A DNA stretch of 35,070 bases from Flavobacteriales bacterium (GTDB lineage: Bacteria > Bacteroidota > Bacteroidia > Flavobacteriales_F > PHOS-HE28). The notes beneath the pieces were generated by a model, which worked only from the letters and a program-made list of their open reading frames with translations, was not told the DNA's origin and did no database searches. The DNA lies in NCBI GenBank assembly GCA_034002325.1, contig JAVFAQ010000001.1, positions 1 to 35,070 of the forward strand. Direction: 5' to 3'. A program made the position numbers and the translations under genes. The first letter of the stretch is position 1. Each line of letters starts with the position of its first letter. Shown piece by piece: positions 8,189-33,233 of the stretch.

Positions 8189-8938
8189 TCACTCCTTGGT
8201 CACCGTCGCCGCCAGGTATTCCCGGTTCAACCGGGCGATGTGCTCCAGGCTGATCCCCTTGGGGCATTCCACCTCGCAGGCGCCGATGCTGCTGCAATTG
8301 CCGAAGCCCTCCTTGTCCATCTGCTCCACCATGGCCAGGGCACGGCGCTTGGCCTCGGGGCGGCCCTGGGGCAGCAGGGAAAGCTGGCTCACCTTGGCGG
8401 CGGTGAACAGCATGGCGCTGCCGTTGGGGCAGCTGGCCACGCAGGCACCGCAACCGATGCAGGTGGCGGCGTCGAAGGCGGTGTCGGCATCGTCCTTCGG
8501 GATGGGCAGCGCGTTGCCGTCCACCAGGTTGCCGCTGGTGTTCACGCTCACGAAGCCGCCTGCCGCTTGGATGCGGTCGAAGGCGCCGCGATGCACCGCA
8601 AGGTCCTTGATCACCGGGAAGGCCGCGCTGCGGAAGGGTTCCACGTAGATGGTGTCGCCGTCCTTGAACTTGCGCATGTGCAGTTGGCAGGTGGTGATGC
8701 CCCGGCCCGGGCCGTGCGCTTCGCCGTTGATGAAGAGACTGCACATGCCGCAGATGCCTTCACGGCAATCGTGGTCGAAGGCGATGGGGTCCTCGCCCTT
8801 GCGCACGAGGTCGTCGTTCAGCACGTCGAGCATCTCCAGGAACGACATGTCCTCGGAAACGCCGTCCACCGGGTAATCGACGATCTTGCCTTTGTCGTTG
8901 GGGCCGGCCTGGCGCCACACCTTCAATGTCAGCTTCAT
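8189..8938 (-). CDS. sdhB: Succinate dehydrogenase/fumarate reductase iron-sulfur subunit
   Basis: 2Fe-2S (CREGICGMC), 4Fe-4S ([12 protein letters not shown]) and 3Fe-4S ([12 protein letters not shown]) cysteine clusters. Last gene of the sdhCAB operon. Confidence 0.95.
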
Positions 8939-8966
8939 GTTGCCCTTGTTCCTATCGTTTCGGTAG

Positions 8967-8996
8967 GTCGACCCATTGGGTCGACGCTACGGGTGC
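8967..8996. repeat. Palindromic element GTCGACCCATTGGGTCGACGCTACGGGTGC (sdhA-sdhB spacer), copy 1 of 2
   Basis: 8-bp perfect stem GTCGACCC/GGGTCGAC. 27/30 identical to 26140-26169, same orientation. Confidence 0.8.
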
Positions 8997-9020
8997 GTTG
9001 ATGAAAGATCCGGTCGTGGC

Positions 9021-11036
<2,016 letters not shown>

Positions 11037-21896: not shown

Positions 21897-22223
21897 AAGT
21901 AGCCCGCACCCTGAGGCCTTGCGAAGGGGAGGACTACTGCGGAAAGCCCGACCCGAGGCTTTGCGAGGGCACCCGCCTTCGGCAGGCAGGCGCCCACACC
22001 TCGGCCGCGCTCGGCGTGGTACCTGCCCGTCATGCCATTTTCCGATCCTCTGATCCTCTAATTATCTGATCGCCCTATTCCACCCACGAGTTCCAGTACT
22101 TCCCATCATCGATCTTCAGCGCCTCCTCGGTCACCATCAGCGGCTTGAAGGTATCCACCATCACGGCGCGCTCGTCGGTCTTCGTTTTGCCGATGCTGCG
22201 TTCCATGGCGCCGGGCTGCGGGC
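21897..22223. repeat. Direct repeat copy 1 (REP-rich flank + orphan hmgA 3' end)
   Basis: Matches 24220-24548 in the same orientation. I count 7 substitutions and 2 one-base indels. A further 12-nt match (atgtgcagggtg, 22227-22238 vs 24566-24577) follows a short gap. Confidence 0.9.
22076..22223 (-). pseudogene. hmgA: Orphan 3' fragment of homogentisate 1,2-dioxygenase (last ~49 codons)
   Basis: Encodes PGAMERSIGKTKTDERAVMVDTFKPLMVTEEALKIDDGKYWNSWVE*, nearly identical to the C-terminus of the intact gene at 24400-25557. No start codon and no upstream hmgA sequence. Confidence 0.85.
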
Positions 22224-22266: not shown

Positions 22267-22286
22267 CGATTCGTGAATCGTGAATC

Positions 22287-22799
22287 ATGGATACGCACAA
22301 GGGCATGCGCCCACAGGACGTAGCGGTGTTGCTGAAGATCGTGGCCTTGGGCAACGACGACTGGCGGGGCATCGACCTGGCGCATGCGCTGCGCCTGAGC
22401 CCGGCCGAGGTGAGCAACTCGCTGAAGCGTTCCGCCATGGCCGGCCTGGTGGACGGCACCAAGCGCCGCGTGTCGAGAGCCGCGCTGCTGGAGTTCCTCA
22501 AGCACGGCCTGCCGTACGTGTTCCCCGTGCGGCCCGGTGGGTTGGTGCGTGGCGTGCCGACCGCGCACGCGGCCGCGCCCCTTCGCACGAAATTCCTGAC
22601 CGCCGATGCCTACGTGTGGCCCTACGCCAAGGGCGACCAGCAGGGGCAGGCCATTGTGCCACTGTACCCCGGTGCCGTTGCTGCCGCACTCGACGACCCC
22701 AAGCTGCACGAACTGCTGGCGTTGGCCGATGCCCTGCGCACCGGTCGCGCCCGCGAACGCGCCGAGGCCGGGAAAGAACTGGCCAAGCGCCTGAAGTGA
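22287..22799 (+). CDS. Winged-helix DNA-binding protein, putative AbiEi-like antitoxin/regulator
   Basis: 170 aa. N-terminal wHTH-like segment (QDVAVLLKIVALG ... IDLAHALRLSPAEVSNSLKRSAMAGLV). The stop overlaps the next start (TGATG). Confidence 0.6.
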   Translation: MDTHKGMRPQDVAVLLKIVALGNDDWRGIDLAHALRLSPAEVSNSLKRSAMAGLVDGTKRRVSRAALLEFLKHGLPYVFPVRPGGLVRGVPTAHAAAPLRTKFLTADAYVWPYAKGDQQGQAIVPLYPGAVAAALDDPKLHELLALADALRTGRARERAEAGKELAKRLK

Positions 22800-23485
22800 T
22801 GCGCGACGCGGTGAATATCCAGGCCGTGCAGATCGTGGCCGATGGCTTGCGCGACCTGCGCGATCAGGTGGTCTTCGTGGGCGGCGCCGTGATCAGCCTC
22901 TATGCGGACGACCCGGGTGCCGATACGCCGCGCCCCACATCGGACATCGATCTCGTGATCGAAGTGGCAGGCTATTCGGCCTACGCAAAATTGGAGGAGC
23001 GCCTCGCGCAACTCGGCTTCCGCCACACACCGGAAGAGCCGGTCAACTGCCGCTACCGCTTCCACGGGGTCACGGTGGACATCATGCCTACCGATGTGCC
23101 CGCGCTGATGCCCACCAACCGCTGGTACCTGCCGGGCATGCGGCATGTTGTGCGCACAACCCTGCCCGACGGCAGCGCGCTCGCGGTGCTCACCGTGCCC
23201 TACTTCCTCGGCACCAAGTTCGAGGCACACAAGGACCGCGGCCGCGACCTGCGCACCAGCAAGGACTTCGAGGACATCGTCTTCATCCTTGATGCACGCT
23301 TGCGATTGGAAGAGGAAGTGGCCACCGCTCCGGAAGAGATACGCGACTACCTCCAGCGTGCGGCCCAAGCCTTGTTGAAGAATCCCGCAACGCGCGAAGC
23401 CATCGAAGGGCACCTTTCGCCGCACATCGCCACGGAGCGGGCGGCGGTGCTATTGGAACGATTGCGGGCGATGGCGGGGGAGTGA
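22799..23485 (+). CDS. Nucleotidyltransferase, AbiEii/AbiGii-like putative toxin
   Basis: 228 aa. FVGGAVISLY-x13-SDIDLVIE (G-G/S ... DxD pol-beta NTase core). The downstream FLGTKFEAHKDRG...SKDFEDIVFIL resembles the conserved Lys/Asp motif of AbiEii proteins. Translationally coupled to the wHTH gene. Confidence 0.6.
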   Translation: MRDAVNIQAVQIVADGLRDLRDQVVFVGGAVISLYADDPGADTPRPTSDIDLVIEVAGYSAYAKLEERLAQLGFRHTPEEPVNCRYRFHGVTVDIMPTDVPALMPTNRWYLPGMRHVVRTTLPDGSALAVLTVPYFLGTKFEAHKDRGRDLRTSKDFEDIVFILDARLRLEEEVATAPEEIRDYLQRAAQALLKNPATREAIEGHLSPHIATERAAVLLERLRAMAGE

Positions 23486-24219: not shown

Positions 24220-24548
24220 AAGTAGCCCGCACCCTGAGACCTTGCGAAGGGGAGGACTACTGCGGATAGCCCGACTCCGAGGCTTTGCGAGGGGCACCCG
24301 CCTTCGGCAGGCAGGCGCCCACACCTCGGCCGCGCTCGGCGTGGTGCCTGCCCGTCATGCCATTTTCCGACCCTCTGATCCTCTAATTATCTGATCGCCC
24401 TATTCCACCCACGAGTTCCAGTACTTCCCGTCGTCGATCTTCAGCGCCTCCTCGGTCACCATCAGCGGCTTGAAGGTATCCACCATCACGGCGAGCTCGT
24501 CGGTCTTCGTTTTGCCGATGCTGCGTTCCATGGCGCCGGGCTGCGGGC
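24220..24548. repeat. Direct repeat copy 2 (REP-rich flank + 3' end of the intact hmgA)
   Basis: See copy 1 at 21897-22223. Confidence 0.9.
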
Positions 24549-25557
24549 CGTGCGGGATGCCGGCGATGTGCAGGGTGATGTCGCCCTGGTCGATGTCGTT
24601 GCGGCTCATGAAATCGCCGTCCACGTAGTAGAGCACTTCGTCGCTGTCGATGTTGCTGTGGTTGTACGGTGCGGGGATGGCCTGCGGGTGGTAGTCGTAG
24701 AGGCGCGGGCAGAAGCTGCACACCACGAAGGCATCGGTCTCGAAGGTCTGGTGTACGGGCGGCGGCTGGTGTACGCGACCGGTGATCGGCTCGAAGTCGC
24801 GGATGTTGAAGGCGTACGGGTAGTTGTAGCCGTCCCAGCCCACCACGTCGAAGGGGTGCGTGGCGTAGATCAGCTCGTGCAGCACGCCCTGCTTCTTCAC
24901 CAGCATGCGGAAATCGCCTTTTTCATCGTGCGTCTCCAGGTCCTTCGGGCGGCGGATGTCGCGCTCGCAGAAGGGGCTGTGCTCCAGCAGTTGGCCGAAC
25001 CAGTTGCGGTAGCGCTTGGGCGTGTACACGGGGCGGTGGCTCTCCACGATGAAGTGGCGGTTCTCGGCACCGTCGAACTCCATGGTGTAGATCATGCCGC
25101 GTGGCACCAGCAGGTAGTCGCCGTAGCCGAACTCCAGGGTGCCCAGCAGGGTGCGCAGGCGGCCGGTGCCCTGGTGGATGAAGATCATCTCATCGCAGTC
25201 GGCGTTCTTGTAGAAGTAGTCCACGCTTTTGGCGGTGGGCGCGGAGAGGATGATCTGCACGTCGCTGTTGACCAGGATCGGCTTGCGGCTTTCGAGGTGA
25301 TCGGCCACCGGCGCCACTTTGAAGCCGTGCAGGCGCATGGCGCGCATGTTCTTCTCGATCGCGATCTTGGGGGTGAGGTCGGTGCTGCCCACGATCTTCT
25401 TCACCTGCGTGGGGCGATGCACGTGGTACAGCAGGGAGCTCATGCCGTCGAAGCCGACGGTGCCGAAGAGCTGCTCGTAGTAGTGCCTGCCTTCCGGGCT
25501 TTGGTGGATGGTGTGCCGCTTGTGCGGGATGTTGCCGAGGGTGTGGTAGATGGGCAT
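24400..25557 (-). CDS. hmgA: Homogentisate 1,2-dioxygenase
   Basis: 385 aa, HGD-like throughout (MPIYHTLGNIPHKRHT, LLYHVHRPTQV, GDYLLVPRGMIY, HIAGIPHGPQPG). Confidence 0.93.
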   Translation of the reverse strand: MPIYHTLGNIPHKRHTIHQSPEGRHYYEQLFGTVGFDGMSSLLYHVHRPTQVKKIVGSTDLTPKIAIEKNMRAMRLHGFKVAPVADHLESRKPILVNSDVQIILSAPTAKSVDYFYKNADCDEMIFIHQGTGRLRTLLGTLEFGYGDYLLVPRGMIYTMEFDGAENRHFIVESHRPVYTPKRYRNWFGQLLEHSPFCERDIRRPKDLETHDEKGDFRMLVKKQGVLHELIYATHPFDVVGWDGYNYPYAFNIRDFEPITGRVHQPPPVHQTFETDAFVVCSFCPRLYDYHPQAIPAPYNHSNIDSDEVLYYVDGDFMSRNDIDQGDITLHIAGIPHGPQPGAMERSIGKTKTDELAVMVDTFKPLMVTEEALKIDDGKYWNSWVE

Positions 25558-25594: not shown

Positions 25595-26764
25595 TTACTT
25601 TCTGTTGAGGGTGATATCCATCAGCTCGGGATGCAGGGTGCCGTTCCGCGCGAGCAGTTCCTCCTCCTCGCGGATCCGCTTCCGCAGACCTTCCGGATCG
25701 TTGATGGCCTTGGTCTTCGTGCTGCGGGTGCTGCGGCCTTTCCGCCACTCGCGTTGCGCTTCGATGGGCAGTTGATGGATCTCGCGGCAGCTCGGCGAGC
25801 AGCAGTGGGCGTACTTGGTCGCGCAGGCTTCGCACTGCACCAGCAGCATGTTGCAGGTGGCCTCGTGGCAGTTGGTGATGCGGTCGCTGGCGGTGCCGCA
25901 CTGCATGCAGGTGCTCACCACATCGTCGGTGATGCGTTCGGCCAGGCGCTCGTCGAACACGAAGTTCTGGCCCTTGTACTTGCTGGGCAGTCCTTCGGCC
26001 TTCAACTGCCGTGCATAATCGATGATGCCCCCGTGCAGCTGCGCCACGTTGGTGAAGCCGTGATGCTTCAGGTAAGCGCTGGCCTTTTCGCAGCGGATGC
26101 CGCCGGTGCAGTAGAGGAGTATTTCCGGTGATCTTGTGTGTCGACCCTTGGGGTCGACGGTACGGGTGCCGCGATCGAGGCCTTGCGGGTCAGGTGATCG
26201 CAGCATCCCCACCACCTCATCTATGGCCCCTCGGAAGGTATCCGCTTTCGGCAGGTAGGCGCCCTCGAAATGCCCGATCACGCTCTCGTAGTTGTTGCGC
26301 ATGTCGATCACCAGCGCGCCTTCCTCCATCTTCCGGTTGAAGGTCTTCGCATCCAGGTGCGCGCCCACGTCGGTCACGTCGAAGGCATCGTCGGCCAGGC
26401 CGTCGGCCACGATCTTCTTCCGCACCTTGATGATGAGCTTCAGGAAGCTCCTGCCATCGTCCTCCACGGCGATCTTCCACGGCACATCACGGAAGGCGGT
26501 CCGGCCATCGAGGTCGCGTCGGAAGGCATCGAGCCGTTCGGTGGGCACGCTCACCTGGGCGTTGATGCCCTCCTGCGCGAGGTAGACGCGCCCCAGCACG
26601 CCCAAGGCTTGCCACGCCTGGTACAGTGCGTTGCGAAGGTCCCCGACCTCGCGCAGCCGCACGTAGCGGTAGAAGCTCAACGTGGTGCGCGGCACGCCTT
26701 CGCGCTCCTGTTCGGCGCGGAGCTGCTCCGGGCTTTTCAGGTTGCGCAGGCGGTGCGGGTCCAT
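25595..26764 (-). CDS. trhO: Rhodanese-domain tRNA uridine(34) hydroxylase TrhO (YceA/UPF0176 family) with Cys-rich C-terminal region
   Basis: LSFYRYV N-terminal domain, rhodanese active-site loop YCTGGIRCEKA, C-terminal Cys cluster (CMQCG...CHEATC...CEAC...CCSPSC). Start at ATG 26764. The 689-aa listed ORF is an upstream read-through artefact. Confidence 0.85.
   Translation of the reverse strand: MDPHRLRNLKSPEQLRAEQEREGVPRTTLSFYRYVRLREVGDLRNALYQAWQALGVLGRVYLAQEGINAQVSVPTERLDAFRRDLDGRTAFRDVPWKIAVEDDGRSFLKLIIKVRKKIVADGLADDAFDVTDVGAHLDAKTFNRKMEEGALVIDMRNNYESVIGHFEGAYLPKADTFRGAIDEVVGMLRSPDPQGLDRGTRTVDPKGRHTRSPEILLYCTGGIRCEKASAYLKHHGFTNVAQLHGGIIDYARQLKAEGLPSKYKGQNFVFDERLAERITDDVVSTCMQCGTASDRITNCHEATCNMLLVQCEACATKYAHCCSPSCREIHQLPIEAQREWRKGRSTRSTKTKAINDPEGLRKRIREEEELLARNGTLHPELMDITLNRK
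26140..26169. repeat. Palindromic element GTCGACCCTTGGGGTCGACGGTACGGGTGC inside the trhO coding sequence, copy 2 of 2
   Basis: 27/30 identical to 8967-8996. Translated in frame as part of ...DRGTRTVDPKGRH... just upstream of the CTGGIRC loop. Confidence 0.8.
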
Positions 26765-30772: not shown

Positions 30773-31225
30773 ATGGAACACCGATCCCTCATCCTGGCCG
30801 CCGCGCTGCTGCCCGTGCTGCTGGCCTGCGGCCCCCGGGCCGGCACGGACCCCGCCCTGCCTACCGGACAGGCAGGCGCGCCGGCCCCGCCACAGGCCGA
30901 CACCACCCCGCCCCCGGCCGACGGCATCCAGGAGATCACCTACCCCGATGGCCGCGTGCGCATGCGCGGACCCCTGGTGGACGGCCGGCGCCATGGCCTG
31001 TGGACCGCCTATTTCCCCGATGGCACCGTGCAGAGCCGGGGCATGTACCGCAACGGCCTGCGCCACGGCACCGCGGAGGTCTTCCACCCGGGCGGCATGC
31101 CATACTACACCGGCCAATACCACCAGGACAACCCCAGCGGCGAATGGTTGTTCCATGACACCACCGGCGCCCTGCTCCGGACCGTGGTCCACGACACCCT
31201 GGGCCGTATCATCGAGCAACGTTGA
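30773..31225 (+). CDS. MORN-variant repeat (YwqK-like) lipoprotein
   Basis: Lipobox LLPVLLAC. Repeats of the G-x-x-x-G-x-W-x-x-Y/F type (RRHGLWTAYFPDG, LRHGTAEVFHPGG, NPSGEWLFHD). ATG 30773 is preceded by GATCTTTG at a 4-nt spacing. Confidence 0.7.
   Translation: MEHRSLILAAALLPVLLACGPRAGTDPALPTGQAGAPAPPQADTTPPPADGIQEITYPDGRVRMRGPLVDGRRHGLWTAYFPDGTVQSRGMYRNGLRHGTAEVFHPGGMPYYTGQYHQDNPSGEWLFHDTTGALLRTVVHDTLGRIIEQR
30851..30877. repeat. 27-nt hairpin element CCCGCCCTGCCTACCGGACAGGCAGGC inside the lipoprotein linker
   Basis: 26/27 identical to 32625-32651, same strand. Stem CCTGCCT/AGGCAGG. Translated as PALPTGQAG. Confidence 0.8.
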
Positions 31226-31265: not shown

Positions 31266-33233
31266 ATGATCAGCCCCCGCACCATCCAGCAGGTGAAGGA
31301 CGCCATGCGCGTGGACGACGTGGTGGGCGAGTTCGTGGCCCTCAAGCGGAAGGGGCCGCGCTTCCTGGGCCTGTGCCCCTTCCACAACGAGAAGACGCCA
31401 TCGTTCAACGTGAGCCCGCAGCTGGGCATCTTCAAATGCTTCGGCTGCGGCGAGGCCGGCGACGCGATCGCCTTCCTGCGCAAGCACGAGCACCTCAGCT
31501 ACGTGGAGGCCGTGCGCTGGCTGGCCAAGCGCTACCACATCGAGGTGGAGGAGGAGGAGACCAGCGTGGAGCACCAACAGGAGCAGAGCGAGCGCGAGGC
31601 CCTGGCCGTGATCCAGCAGTGGGCCATGGAGTGGAGCGGGAAGCAGCTGTGGGAGAGCGACGAGGGCCGGCGCATCGGGCTGGCCTACTTCCGCGAGCGG
31701 GGCTTCACCGACCAGACCGTCCGCACCTTCAAGCTGGGCTACGTGCCCGAGCACGGCAACGCCTTCGCCCGCGACGCGCTGGCCCACGGCTTCAACCCGG
31801 AGCTGCTGGAGAAGGCCGGGTGGACCAAGCGCCGCGACGATCGCGACGGCACCTCGTGGGATTTCTTCGCCGGGCGCGTGATCTTCCCCATCCTGGGCCT
31901 CAGCGGCCAGCCCATCGCCTTCGGCGCCCGCACGCTCAAGAGCGACAAGAAGCTGCCCAAGTACTTCAACAGCCCGGAGAGCCCGCTGTACGTGAAGAGC
32001 CGGTCGCTCTACGGCATCCATCACGCCAAGAAGGCCATCGTGGAGCAGGCCCTGTGCTACCTGGTGGAAGGCTACACCGACGTGATCGCCCTGCACCAGG
32101 CCGGCGTACACAACGTGGTGGCCAGCAGCGGCACCAGCCTCACCGAGGACCAGGTGCGCCTGATCAAGCGATACGCCCCCACGGTGGCCATCCTGTACGA
32201 CGGCGACGCGGCCGGCATGAAGGCCAGCCTGCGCGGGATCGACCTGGTGCTCAAGGAGGGCCTCAACGTGAAGGTGGTGACCTTCCCGGCGGGCGAGGAC
32301 CCCGACAGCTTCGCCCGGTCGCGCGGCAGCAGCGCGGTGCAGGCCCATCTGCGCGAGGGGGCGCAGGACTTCCTGGTGTTCAAGACCGAACTGCTCACCA
32401 CCGGCACGGAGAACGACCCCGTGCAGCGCGCGGCCGCCATCCATGAGATCGTGGAGAGCCTGGCCCTGGTGCCCGACCTGGTGCTGCGCGCCCTGTACGT
32501 GCAGCAGTGCAGCCGGCTGCTGAACGTGAACGAGCAGGCCTTGATCAGCGAGGTGAACAAGGTGCTGCGCAAGCAGTACCGCAAGCACACCGGCGGCGAG
32601 GAGCTCCCGGAAGGGCCGCCCGCCCCCGCCCTGCGTACCGGACAGGCAGGCTTGCAGCCCGCGCCCCAGGAGGCGGGCGGCACCGAGGTGCAGGAGCACG
32701 ACCTGCTGCGCATGCTGCTGCGCTACGGGCAGGAGCGCGTGATGGTGCCGGTGAAGAAGGAGGACGACAGCGTGGTGGAGGAGGAGGCCACCCTGGCCGA
32801 AGTGCTCTTCGAGCTGCTGGCCAGCGACCAGACCGAGTTCACCGAGCCGCTGCTGCGCGAGATCTACCTCGACTACCGCTTCCGGCACAACCTGGGCGAG
32901 CCCGTGAGCGCGGCCCTGTACGTGGGCCATGAGAACGAGGCATGGCGCCGCACGGCCATCGACCTGCTCACCGACAAGCACGAGCTGAGCCCCAATTGGG
33001 AGGCGCGGCACCGCATACCCGTGAAGCACGAGCGCGAACACCTCTTCGACGCCCTTTCCGAGGCGGTGGACCTGCTGAAGGAACGGCGCGTGGACCGCCT
33101 GATCCGCGAGCAGCAGCAACTGCTCCGGCAGGACGACGAGGACGTGACGACGGGCGCCCTGAAGGAGATCAAGCGGCTGTCCCTGATCAAGCAGATGTTC
33201 GCCCGGCGCACCGGCCGGGTGATCGTGGGATGA
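31266..33233 (+). CDS. dnaG: DNA primase
   Basis: Zinc ribbon CPFHNEKTPSFNV...CFGCG, TOPRIM YLVEGYTDVIALHQAG ... LYDGDAAG, 655 aa. Confidence 0.93.
   Translation: MISPRTIQQVKDAMRVDDVVGEFVALKRKGPRFLGLCPFHNEKTPSFNVSPQLGIFKCFGCGEAGDAIAFLRKHEHLSYVEAVRWLAKRYHIEVEEEETSVEHQQEQSEREALAVIQQWAMEWSGKQLWESDEGRRIGLAYFRERGFTDQTVRTFKLGYVPEHGNAFARDALAHGFNPELLEKAGWTKRRDDRDGTSWDFFAGRVIFPILGLSGQPIAFGARTLKSDKKLPKYFNSPESPLYVKSRSLYGIHHAKKAIVEQALCYLVEGYTDVIALHQAGVHNVVASSGTSLTEDQVRLIKRYAPTVAILYDGDAAGMKASLRGIDLVLKEGLNVKVVTFPAGEDPDSFARSRGSSAVQAHLREGAQDFLVFKTELLTTGTENDPVQRAAAIHEIVESLALVPDLVLRALYVQQCSRLLNVNEQALISEVNKVLRKQYRKHTGGEELPEGPPAPALRTGQAGLQPAPQEAGGTEVQEHDLLRMLLRYGQERVMVPVKKEDDSVVEEEATLAEVLFELLASDQTEFTEPLLREIYLDYRFRHNLGEPVSAALYVGHENEAWRRTAIDLLTDKHELSPNWEARHRIPVKHEREHLFDALSEAVDLLKERRVDRLIREQQQLLRQDDEDVTTGALKEIKRLSLIKQMFARRTGRVIVG
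32625..32651. repeat. 27-nt hairpin element CCCGCCCTGCGTACCGGACAGGCAGGC inside the dnaG linker
   Basis: See 30851-30877. Translated as PALRTGQAG in the low-complexity linker between the TOPRIM and C-terminal domains. Confidence 0.8.

Follow-up and report, generated by a model that had tools for sequence, protein, structure and literature searches.

The gene for tRNA uridine(34) hydroxylase (trhO) on the Flavobacteriales contig JAVFAQ010000001.1 carries, just ahead of the codons for its catalytic loop, a 30-nt hairpin repeat that also sits in the spacer between the sdhA and sdhB genes. How does a palindromic repeat come to lie in the reading frame of an enzyme gene, and what keeps it there? 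We analyzed positions 1 to 35,070 of the contig (the window; 66.6% G+C) together with related loci from other genomes. The best account as a whole, to which we give a probability of about 0.8, is that the 30 nt in trhO are a copy of a repetitive extragenic palindromic (REP) element associated with a REP-associated tyrosine transposase (RAYT), and that this copy was inserted in frame and tolerated in a loop.

The repeat and the TrhO linker

The features that concern us in the window are these, with lengths in amino acids (aa) where they are protein features.

25595..26764, minus strand: trhO, tRNA uridine(34) hydroxylase, 389 aa, open reading frame (ORF) intact, strong coding signal on both sides of the insert
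26123..26197, minus strand: hypervariable segment of the TrhO linker, 25 codons, SPDPQGLDRGTRTVDPKGRHTRSPE, replacing a 6-residue linker of the KGKKDA type, net +19 aa
26140..26169, minus strand: REP copy in trhO; on the coding strand the tag GCACCCGTACC (26169-26159), then the hairpin GTCGACCC-CAA-GGGTCGAC (26158-26140); translated GTRTVDPKGRH; fits the family consensus
26084..26113, minus strand: catalytic rhodanese loop YCTGGIRCEK, four residues downstream of the insert, invariant in 120 homologues
8939..9020, minus strand: sdhA-sdhB intercistronic spacer, 82 nt; sdhA stop at 9021, sdhB start at 8938
8963..8996, minus strand: second REP copy; sense strand GCACCCGTAGC-GTCGACCC-AAT-GGGTCGAC-CTAC

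The two copies, gtcgacccttggggtcgacggtacgggtgc at 26140-26169 and gtcgacccattgggtcgacgctacgggtgc at 8967-8996, are identical at 27 of 30 positions and share a perfect 8-bp GC-rich hairpin, GTCGACCC-NNN-GGGTCGAC, with a 3-nt loop. The stem-loop has a predicted fold of about -19 kcal/mol, and in the second copy (8963..8996) outer GTAG and CTAC lengthen the stem, with a 1-nt bulge. Both copies have the same orientation relative to transcription, as their host genes are all on the minus strand. We found GTCGACCCNNNGGGTCGAC exactly twice in the window, against 0.05 occurrences expected from shuffles, none of which reached two; the asymmetric 3' part of the repeat has the same excess over shuffles. 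A first-pass annotation, made from the sequence before this analysis, had reported the 27/30 identity between a trhO copy and an intergenic copy, and the sequence, the positions and the shuffle test all bear this out. It had also stated that the repeat is translated in frame immediately before YCTGGIRCEK, and the translation agrees: the peptide GTRTVDPKGRH lies within SPDPQGLDRGTRTVDPKGRHTRSPE, directly ahead of ILLYCTGGIRCEK. The hairpin arms at 26140-26158 and 8967-8985 each hold GTCGAC, a 6-bp palindrome (SalI site), so the arms could also self-pair or pair between molecules.

An assembly artefact as the source of the trhO insert is ruled out by agreeing independent assemblies. The insert is unchanged in trhO contigs from independent activated-sludge and landfill metagenome assemblies. 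In one independent run the assembly graph forks exactly at 26140 and 26170, which is expected because the sequence is a repeat.

With UPF0176_N, Rhodanese and Rhodanese_C domains in Pfam and the CTGGIRCEK loop, the protein belongs to TrhO (YceA, UPF0176), and it differs in having a linker that is 19 aa longer before the catalytic strand. The comparison took in 79 loci with DNA and 120 homologous proteins at 75-94% identity, with linker length counted between FRGAIxEV and YCTGGIRCE. The linker is 22 aa (FRGAIEEVVEAFKGKKDAEVLM; VVEAFKGKKDAEVLM type) in 25 loci whose TrhO is 74-79% identical to that of the window over the whole length. It is 32 aa, which corresponds to the REP alone (+10 aa), in two loci, and 41 aa in ten loci and the window, making eleven sequences. 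Linkers of 49-51 aa contain a further hairpin repeat within the REP loop (VDP-VIPALSRE-G.. and VDP-LRAPKHGEGG-LGRP). Other lineages have unrelated hairpin repeats at the same linker position, read as TLRQAQGE or TLRLRSGQ, or GAATGG-type repeats (NGEW...). Additional copies of the VIPALSRE, TLRQAQGE and GAATGG-type repeats occur elsewhere in the fetched loci; within 1.6 Mb the nested LRAPKHGEGG insert was found in trhO alone, and it is not shown to be a dispersed repeat.

Two more observations concern this linker and its surroundings. In L129 and L171 it holds what appears to be a decayed or variant REP, ..NFSTDQGGRR.., encoded by AGCACCGACCAAGGTGGTCGGCGG, which still pairs CCGACCA with TGGTCGG. 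GAATGG-type repeats are translated as NGEW..VNG in the linker of some lineages (L153/L184), and they also lie just past the trhO stop in many loci (L120, L121, L124, L154, L162, L166, L167 and L170).

The first-pass annotation had taken the hydrophilic stretch for an insertion relative to a short TrhO linker. This stands, given 22 aa in 25 close orthologues against 41 aa here. The solved TrhO structure 9j5o, which can be aligned before and after the insert, lacks 19 aa at this place (TrhO aligns to 4f67 too). Its treatment of the repeat as the insert was right in that the insertion is real, but the REP supplies 10-11 of the 19 extra residues and the rest is unrelated sequence. An AlphaFold2 model of moderate confidence (mean predicted local distance difference test score, pLDDT, of 63) has a helix at residues 177-189 and coil at 190-214, where pLDDT stays below 50 from 193 to 210; the ILLY strand (215-218) then runs on to the cysteine loop. 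The insert is predicted by this model to be a disordered loop between the helix and the catalytic-cysteine strand. Structure prediction had been proposed earlier as a check for a surface loop, and what it returned is this low-confidence coil between helix and strand before the catalytic loop.

A dispersed REP family and its probable transposase

We searched for the core hairpin in one representative genome per GTDB species, and at least 116 stretches matched. At least about 70 of the copies beyond the window form a family with a common asymmetric flank, and all of them come from metagenome-assembled genomes (MAGs) labelled Flavobacteriales or Bacteroidota, with 54-67% G+C. Among the matches listed, one MAG has at least 8 copies and another at least 7. 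Core matches in Actinobacteria and other high-GC taxa have no shared flanks and fall mostly on the conserved DKTGT codon run of P-type ATPases, and we did not count them as family. Counting the motif beyond the two sites had been suggested at the outset, with chance similarity as the verdict if it were limited to those two, and the count has gone the other way. With 0.05 occurrences expected in the window and the same 30 nt plus tag recurring at about 70 unrelated loci, we rejected chance as the source of the likeness between the trhO and sdhA-sdhB copies.

An alignment of 71 non-trhO copies gives the family consensus GCACCYGTA(G/C)C-GTCGACCC-NNN-GGGTCGAC-(CTAC), where NNN is often ACT, and information content falls away beyond a span of 30-34 nt. 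GTAG or GTAC stands one base 5' of the stem in nearly all of these copies, and CTAC is often found at the 3' end (the 'double foot'). The stem has compensatory variants at loci L037, L203 and L206. The elements are short stem-loops (30-34 nt) with a GT[AG]G-like tetranucleotide at the hairpin end and an associated cognate RAYT gene, as is expected of REPs. The repeat is a dispersed, GTAG-tagged 'double-foot' REP family in a high-GC clade of wastewater and sludge Flavobacteriales.

To place the copies relative to genes we modelled coding likelihood from the codon usage of trhO, checked the model on other genes of the window, and combined it with a crude gene caller. By these crude calls, the intergenic copies between co-directional genes are sense in 41 cases and antisense in 6; six more lie between convergent genes and none between divergent genes. 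The usual intergenic position is a few to about 40 nt past a stop codon and 5-60 nt ahead of the next start. The sdhA-sdhB copy is alike, 24 nt past the sdhA stop and about 24-28 nt ahead of the sdhB ATG. This site is a clean presence/absence polymorphism among relatives. The spacer is 7 nt with no element in L200-202, and 93 nt with a diverged REP, GTAGTGTCGAC-GCATGA-GTCGACACTAC, in L203-205. In L197-199 it is about 560 nt and holds a gene for a 23S-rRNA-IVP four-helix-bundle protein flanked by GAATGG repeats (in the coordinates of these loci, the PF05635 gene and the flanking GTGAATGGCGAATGG... repeats lie at 9440-10000).

About 80% of the copies are extragenic; of the 70 non-trhO copies, 13-15 are genic, including four in RAYT genes. 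In-frame copies flanked on both sides by Pfam domains occur in leucyl-tRNA synthetase (LeuRS, leuS), a PIF1-type helicase, an MmeI-like protein, Mfd, an adenylate cyclase, DnaE and a histidine kinase, where the copy falls within the HATPase_c domain. Further in-frame hosts are a solute symporter (two MAGs) and a second site in DnaE. A Pfam search of the ORF around a candidate genic copy in L091 gave no match. The genic copies are read in two frames, as xRSVDPxGRP and as APVASTHWVD. About one fifth of the family copies lie in frame in bona fide genes, and the in-frame REP of trhO is one of many such events in the clade.

The DnaE genes deserve a separate remark. The REP of L071 (@1016) follows ..LGHIRDAV.LV, and L079 has a different repeat insert (..VTCNLGLETCDF..) at the same place as well as a REP within its HHH_6 domain. 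About 20 codons past the REP the dnaE gene of L071 has a frameshift, perhaps through a sequencing error, perhaps because the gene is a pseudogene.

The candidate transposase comes from four loci (L083, L005, L051 and L012), each with two inverted REP copies about 310 nt apart and, starting between them, an ORF of 175-185 aa. The ORF has a DHLH (HUH) motif and the C-terminus W..GYYERAIR..YI.ENP..W, and the gene usually adjoins a methylmalonyl-CoA mutase gene. Among NCBIfam models it matches NF047646, 'REP-associated tyrosine transposase', best (E 1e-12 to 1e-14), and the profile is covered in full after the internal REP is removed. JGI labels several homologues 'REP element-mobilizing transposase RayT'. 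A PDB sequence search with the RAYT gave no match, and the 35,070-nt window itself has no RAYT gene. There are 454 RAYT homologues, and among the 120 listed every source name given is a Flavobacteriales MAG.

The REPs are built into the arrangement of this gene. At the seven loci checked at the DNA level, one REP is 8-60 nt upstream of the RAYT start and a second is within the ORF. Nearly all of the best 120 of the 454 homologues have the internal REP in frame directly after the HUH motif, read as (G)STQWVDATGA or a recognisable variant. Diverged members read ATQWVA in place of STQWVD, and in L206 this is a compensatory stem change: the upstream and the internal REP (9946 and 10292) both carry the variant stem GCGACCC/GGGTCGC. 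Such a joint change is what a cognate REP-RAYT pair predicts. Some of the homologues (P0241-P0360 listed) have extra inserts beside the REP peptide.

Part of this picture has precedents. Di Nocera, De Gregorio and Rocco (2013; PMC3733652) described GTAG REPs that lie wholly inside known genes with the frame kept and that are enriched in genes for DNA replication and repair, and argued that intragenic insertions are tolerated in flexible linkers and loops. Our hosts are of a similar kind, with DnaE, Mfd and the PIF1 helicase for this family and DnaG for a second hairpin family described below. That survey places GTAG REPs in Proteobacteria, Cyanobacteria, Chloroflexi and the Planctomycetes-Verrucomicrobia-Chlamydiae (PVC) group, with only CGTC-type repeats in Bacteroidetes, and its available text reports no trhO, no nested insertions and no cross-species conservation of an intragenic copy. 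Quentin (2018; PMC6006769) reported that Bacteroidetes have REP/RAYT systems whose transposase gene itself contains REPs; the upstream plus internal arrangement was published there for RAYT subclass 2.4, which was reported to be abundant in Bacteroidetes and Cyanobacteria.

Subclass 2.4 (group 4 of Bertels et al. 2017), with its 'double-foot' REPs, is the closest known system. The likeness lies in the GC-rich hairpin, the 5' GT[AG]G foot with an often complementary C[TC]AC at the 3' end, the dispersed copies, a core stem whose base next to the feet starts with G-C pairs, and the REP inside the RAYT ORF directly after HUH. There are also differences, since the foot here is often GTAC rather than the published GT[AG]G, and the transposase motifs are DHLH, W[HQ] and YI[TA]ENP rather than the NH[IFV]H, WQ and YIxNNP of subclass 2.4 (PMC6006769). 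Judged by its sequence features, the transposase system appears to behave like subclass 2.4 and may fall outside it in the strict sense.

Two other classes can be set aside. Miniature inverted-repeat transposable elements are defined by terminal inverted repeats of a parent insertion sequence, a target-site duplication and a length of 50-500 bp, but here we have a single hairpin of about 30 nt, and in none of the 71 copies is a flanking direct duplication visible. The first-pass annotation had drawn a parallel to the Rickettsia palindromic elements (RPEs), which are likewise palindromes found in frame in many unrelated ORFs and translated as extra surface peptides. RPE-1-type elements are about 100-150 bp and encode inserts of 30-50 aa, and to our knowledge no dedicated transposase is known for RPEs. 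The element here is 30-34 nt and adds 10-11 aa, so the resemblance is one of behaviour only. The apt comparison is with REP/RAYT systems (PMC6006769, PMC3733652).

The same annotation knew of no description of such in-frame palindromes for Bacteroidota. The novelty is smaller than it supposed, as the literature already has REPs within genes, REP/RAYT systems in Bacteroidetes and a RAYT gene with a REP in it. As far as the available portions of the literature go, we did not find a description of this REP family with its sludge Flavobacteriales host clade, nor of a TrhO linker that is a nested hot spot for several families. The marked preference for the sense strand and the cross-species nucleotide conservation of an intragenic copy were likewise not found described there.

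Explanations for the trhO copy

By analogy with TnpA-REP of E. coli, the RAYT would make or move copies via single-stranded DNA hairpins. In trhO, the element together with about 27 nt of unrelated sequence lengthens the linker between the helix and the catalytic-cysteine beta-strand, leaving the frame and the catalytic motif intact. We believe the copy was tolerated because its length is a multiple of three, it has no stop codon in frame and it falls in a loop that is predicted to be solvent-exposed and disordered; the enzyme presumably still works. After insertion, the hairpin sequence would have been preserved, either because selection acts on the structure in DNA or RNA or because the copies are homogenised against one another, and the rest of the insert would have drifted.

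The conservation of the copy bears on that last step. Orthologues with the REP conserve its nucleotide sequence beyond the peptide: at 4-fold degenerate sites the REP has an identity of 0.79, against 0.54 in the flanking trhO codons. Nucleotide identity is 0.94-0.96 in the REP arms against 0.76-0.77 in adjacent conserved codons; it is 0.80 in the tag, 0.60 in the loop codon and 0.49-0.51 in the non-REP parts of the insert. The REP uses the codons GTC, GGT and CGA, which make up 12%, 11% and 6% of the Val, Gly and Arg codons in trhO genes. As far as sequence comparison can tell, the pattern argues for hairpin constraint, or homogenisation against other copies, after one old insertion, over protein-level selection.

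The same numbers could be taken further, to say that the element is chiefly a functional RNA or DNA hairpin under selection, serving as operon punctuation that stabilises or processes polycistronic mRNAs. The trhO copy might then be retained because it, for example, makes ribosomes pause ahead of the catalytic loop or gives a protein a place to dock. This proposal is compatible with a REP origin and differs solely on why the copy is conserved; we regard it as possible but tentative. In trhO, conservation of the stem exceeds that of the catalytic-domain codons around it and the loop varies freely, the stem has its compensatory variants (L037, L203, L206) and its fold of about -19 kcal/mol, and the copies prefer the sense strand (41:6) and short spacers between co-directional genes. 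However, strand-specific insertion by a single-strand transposase can also explain the orientation bias, homogenisation rather than function could account for the conservation, many orthologues do well without the element, and an Rfam search of the whole window gave no match. Protein-level selection is much harder to reconcile with these data. A lineage-specific TrhO peptide, resembling the intergenic copy by coincidence or through an assembly artefact, would fit with VDPxGR being conserved at the amino-acid level in many orthologues, but not with conserved synonymous positions and rare codons, nor with the same 30 nt and tag at about 70 unrelated loci, agreeing independent assemblies and a chance expectation of 0.05. 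We find this explanation scarcely credible.

It is also conceivable that the REP looks conserved because its copies are young, each lineage having gained its own not long ago at a trhO linker that is a hot spot for insertion. The linker has taken at least four other kinds of insert (TLRQAQGE, TLRLRSGQ, the NGEW type, and the nested VIPALSRE and LRAPKHGEGG), REP versions of both 32 aa and 41 aa exist, insert states are intermingled on the TrhO protein tree, and DnaE has a similar shared site. What makes us think this unlikely is that there are eight distinct 41-aa alleles in which the REP is at the identical position, and in which the non-REP segments have the same length and have diverged to about 50% identity. 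This combination fits one old insertion better than eight precise re-insertions.

Several points weigh against an in-frame, RAYT-associated REP insertion as we have described it. The putative link of the RAYT to the REP is one of association and homology. NF047646 scores 46-54 bits against a cut-off of 80, Pfam Y1_Tnp matches weakly and below its gathering threshold, and the DHLH and YI[TA]ENP motifs misfit the published subclass 2.4 signatures noted above. At trhO, the alleles with and without the insert are too diverged for a target motif, a target-site duplication or exact insertion boundaries to be read. The TrhO distance tree with the linker masked is star-like (in the conserved flanks the sequences are about 76-88% identical to the window), so that one ancient insertion is indistinguishable on it from several. 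The density of the family looks modest: 636 kb of DNA flanking trhO has 2 copies besides those in trhO, and nine sdh loci have none.

Other repeats in the window and wider meaning

A second hairpin repeat, CCTGCCTACCGGACAGGCAGG, occurs twice on the plus strand of the window, at 30855-30877 and 32629-32651. The first copy is inside a called ORF of 150 aa (30773-31225) and is read ..DPALPTGQAGAP.., and the second is in frame in dnaG (31266-33233), past the Toprim region, and is read ..PAPALRTGQAGLQPAP... Elsewhere this element sits nested within a REP, separating its tag from its stem (L062@5878), appears as ACLPDRQ in the TrhO homologue P0038, and lies 58 nt past the RAYT stop in L083.

The window also has a direct duplication of about 330 nt, 96-98% identical, at 21897-22223 and 24220-24548. 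It spans the last ~47 codons of the homogentisate dioxygenase gene (24400-25557, minus strand) and the downstream region, and it flanks a 2.3-kb segment with an ORF of 401 aa (22280-23485). It looks as though either a segment was inserted and left a long target duplication, or part of the gene was duplicated.

A broader proposal combines two ideas: that intragenic REPs are held by selection as nucleic-acid hairpins, and that the TrhO linker is a standing 'landing pad' for unrelated hairpin families, including insertions into the loop of a resident REP. We think this rather unlikely. If it were true, exposed single-strand hairpins would themselves be preferred targets for further hairpin elements, and REPs would act from within ORFs as RAYT docking sites or as signals for translation or mRNA decay.

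The inserted trhO REP and its relatives indicate that REP/RAYT systems shape protein sequence in an uncultured but environmentally abundant lineage of Flavobacteriales, where about one fifth of the copies add 10-11 residues to real enzymes, in one case next to the active site. For annotators, the family accounts for puzzling hydrophilic inserts (xRSVDPxGRP, ASTHWVD, STQWVDATGA) and for differences in length among otherwise conserved proteins. The trhO site is a natural series that runs from no insert to a single REP to a nested insert, and a copy whose stem has stayed constant amid saturated divergence gives a handle on whether selection keeps REPs.

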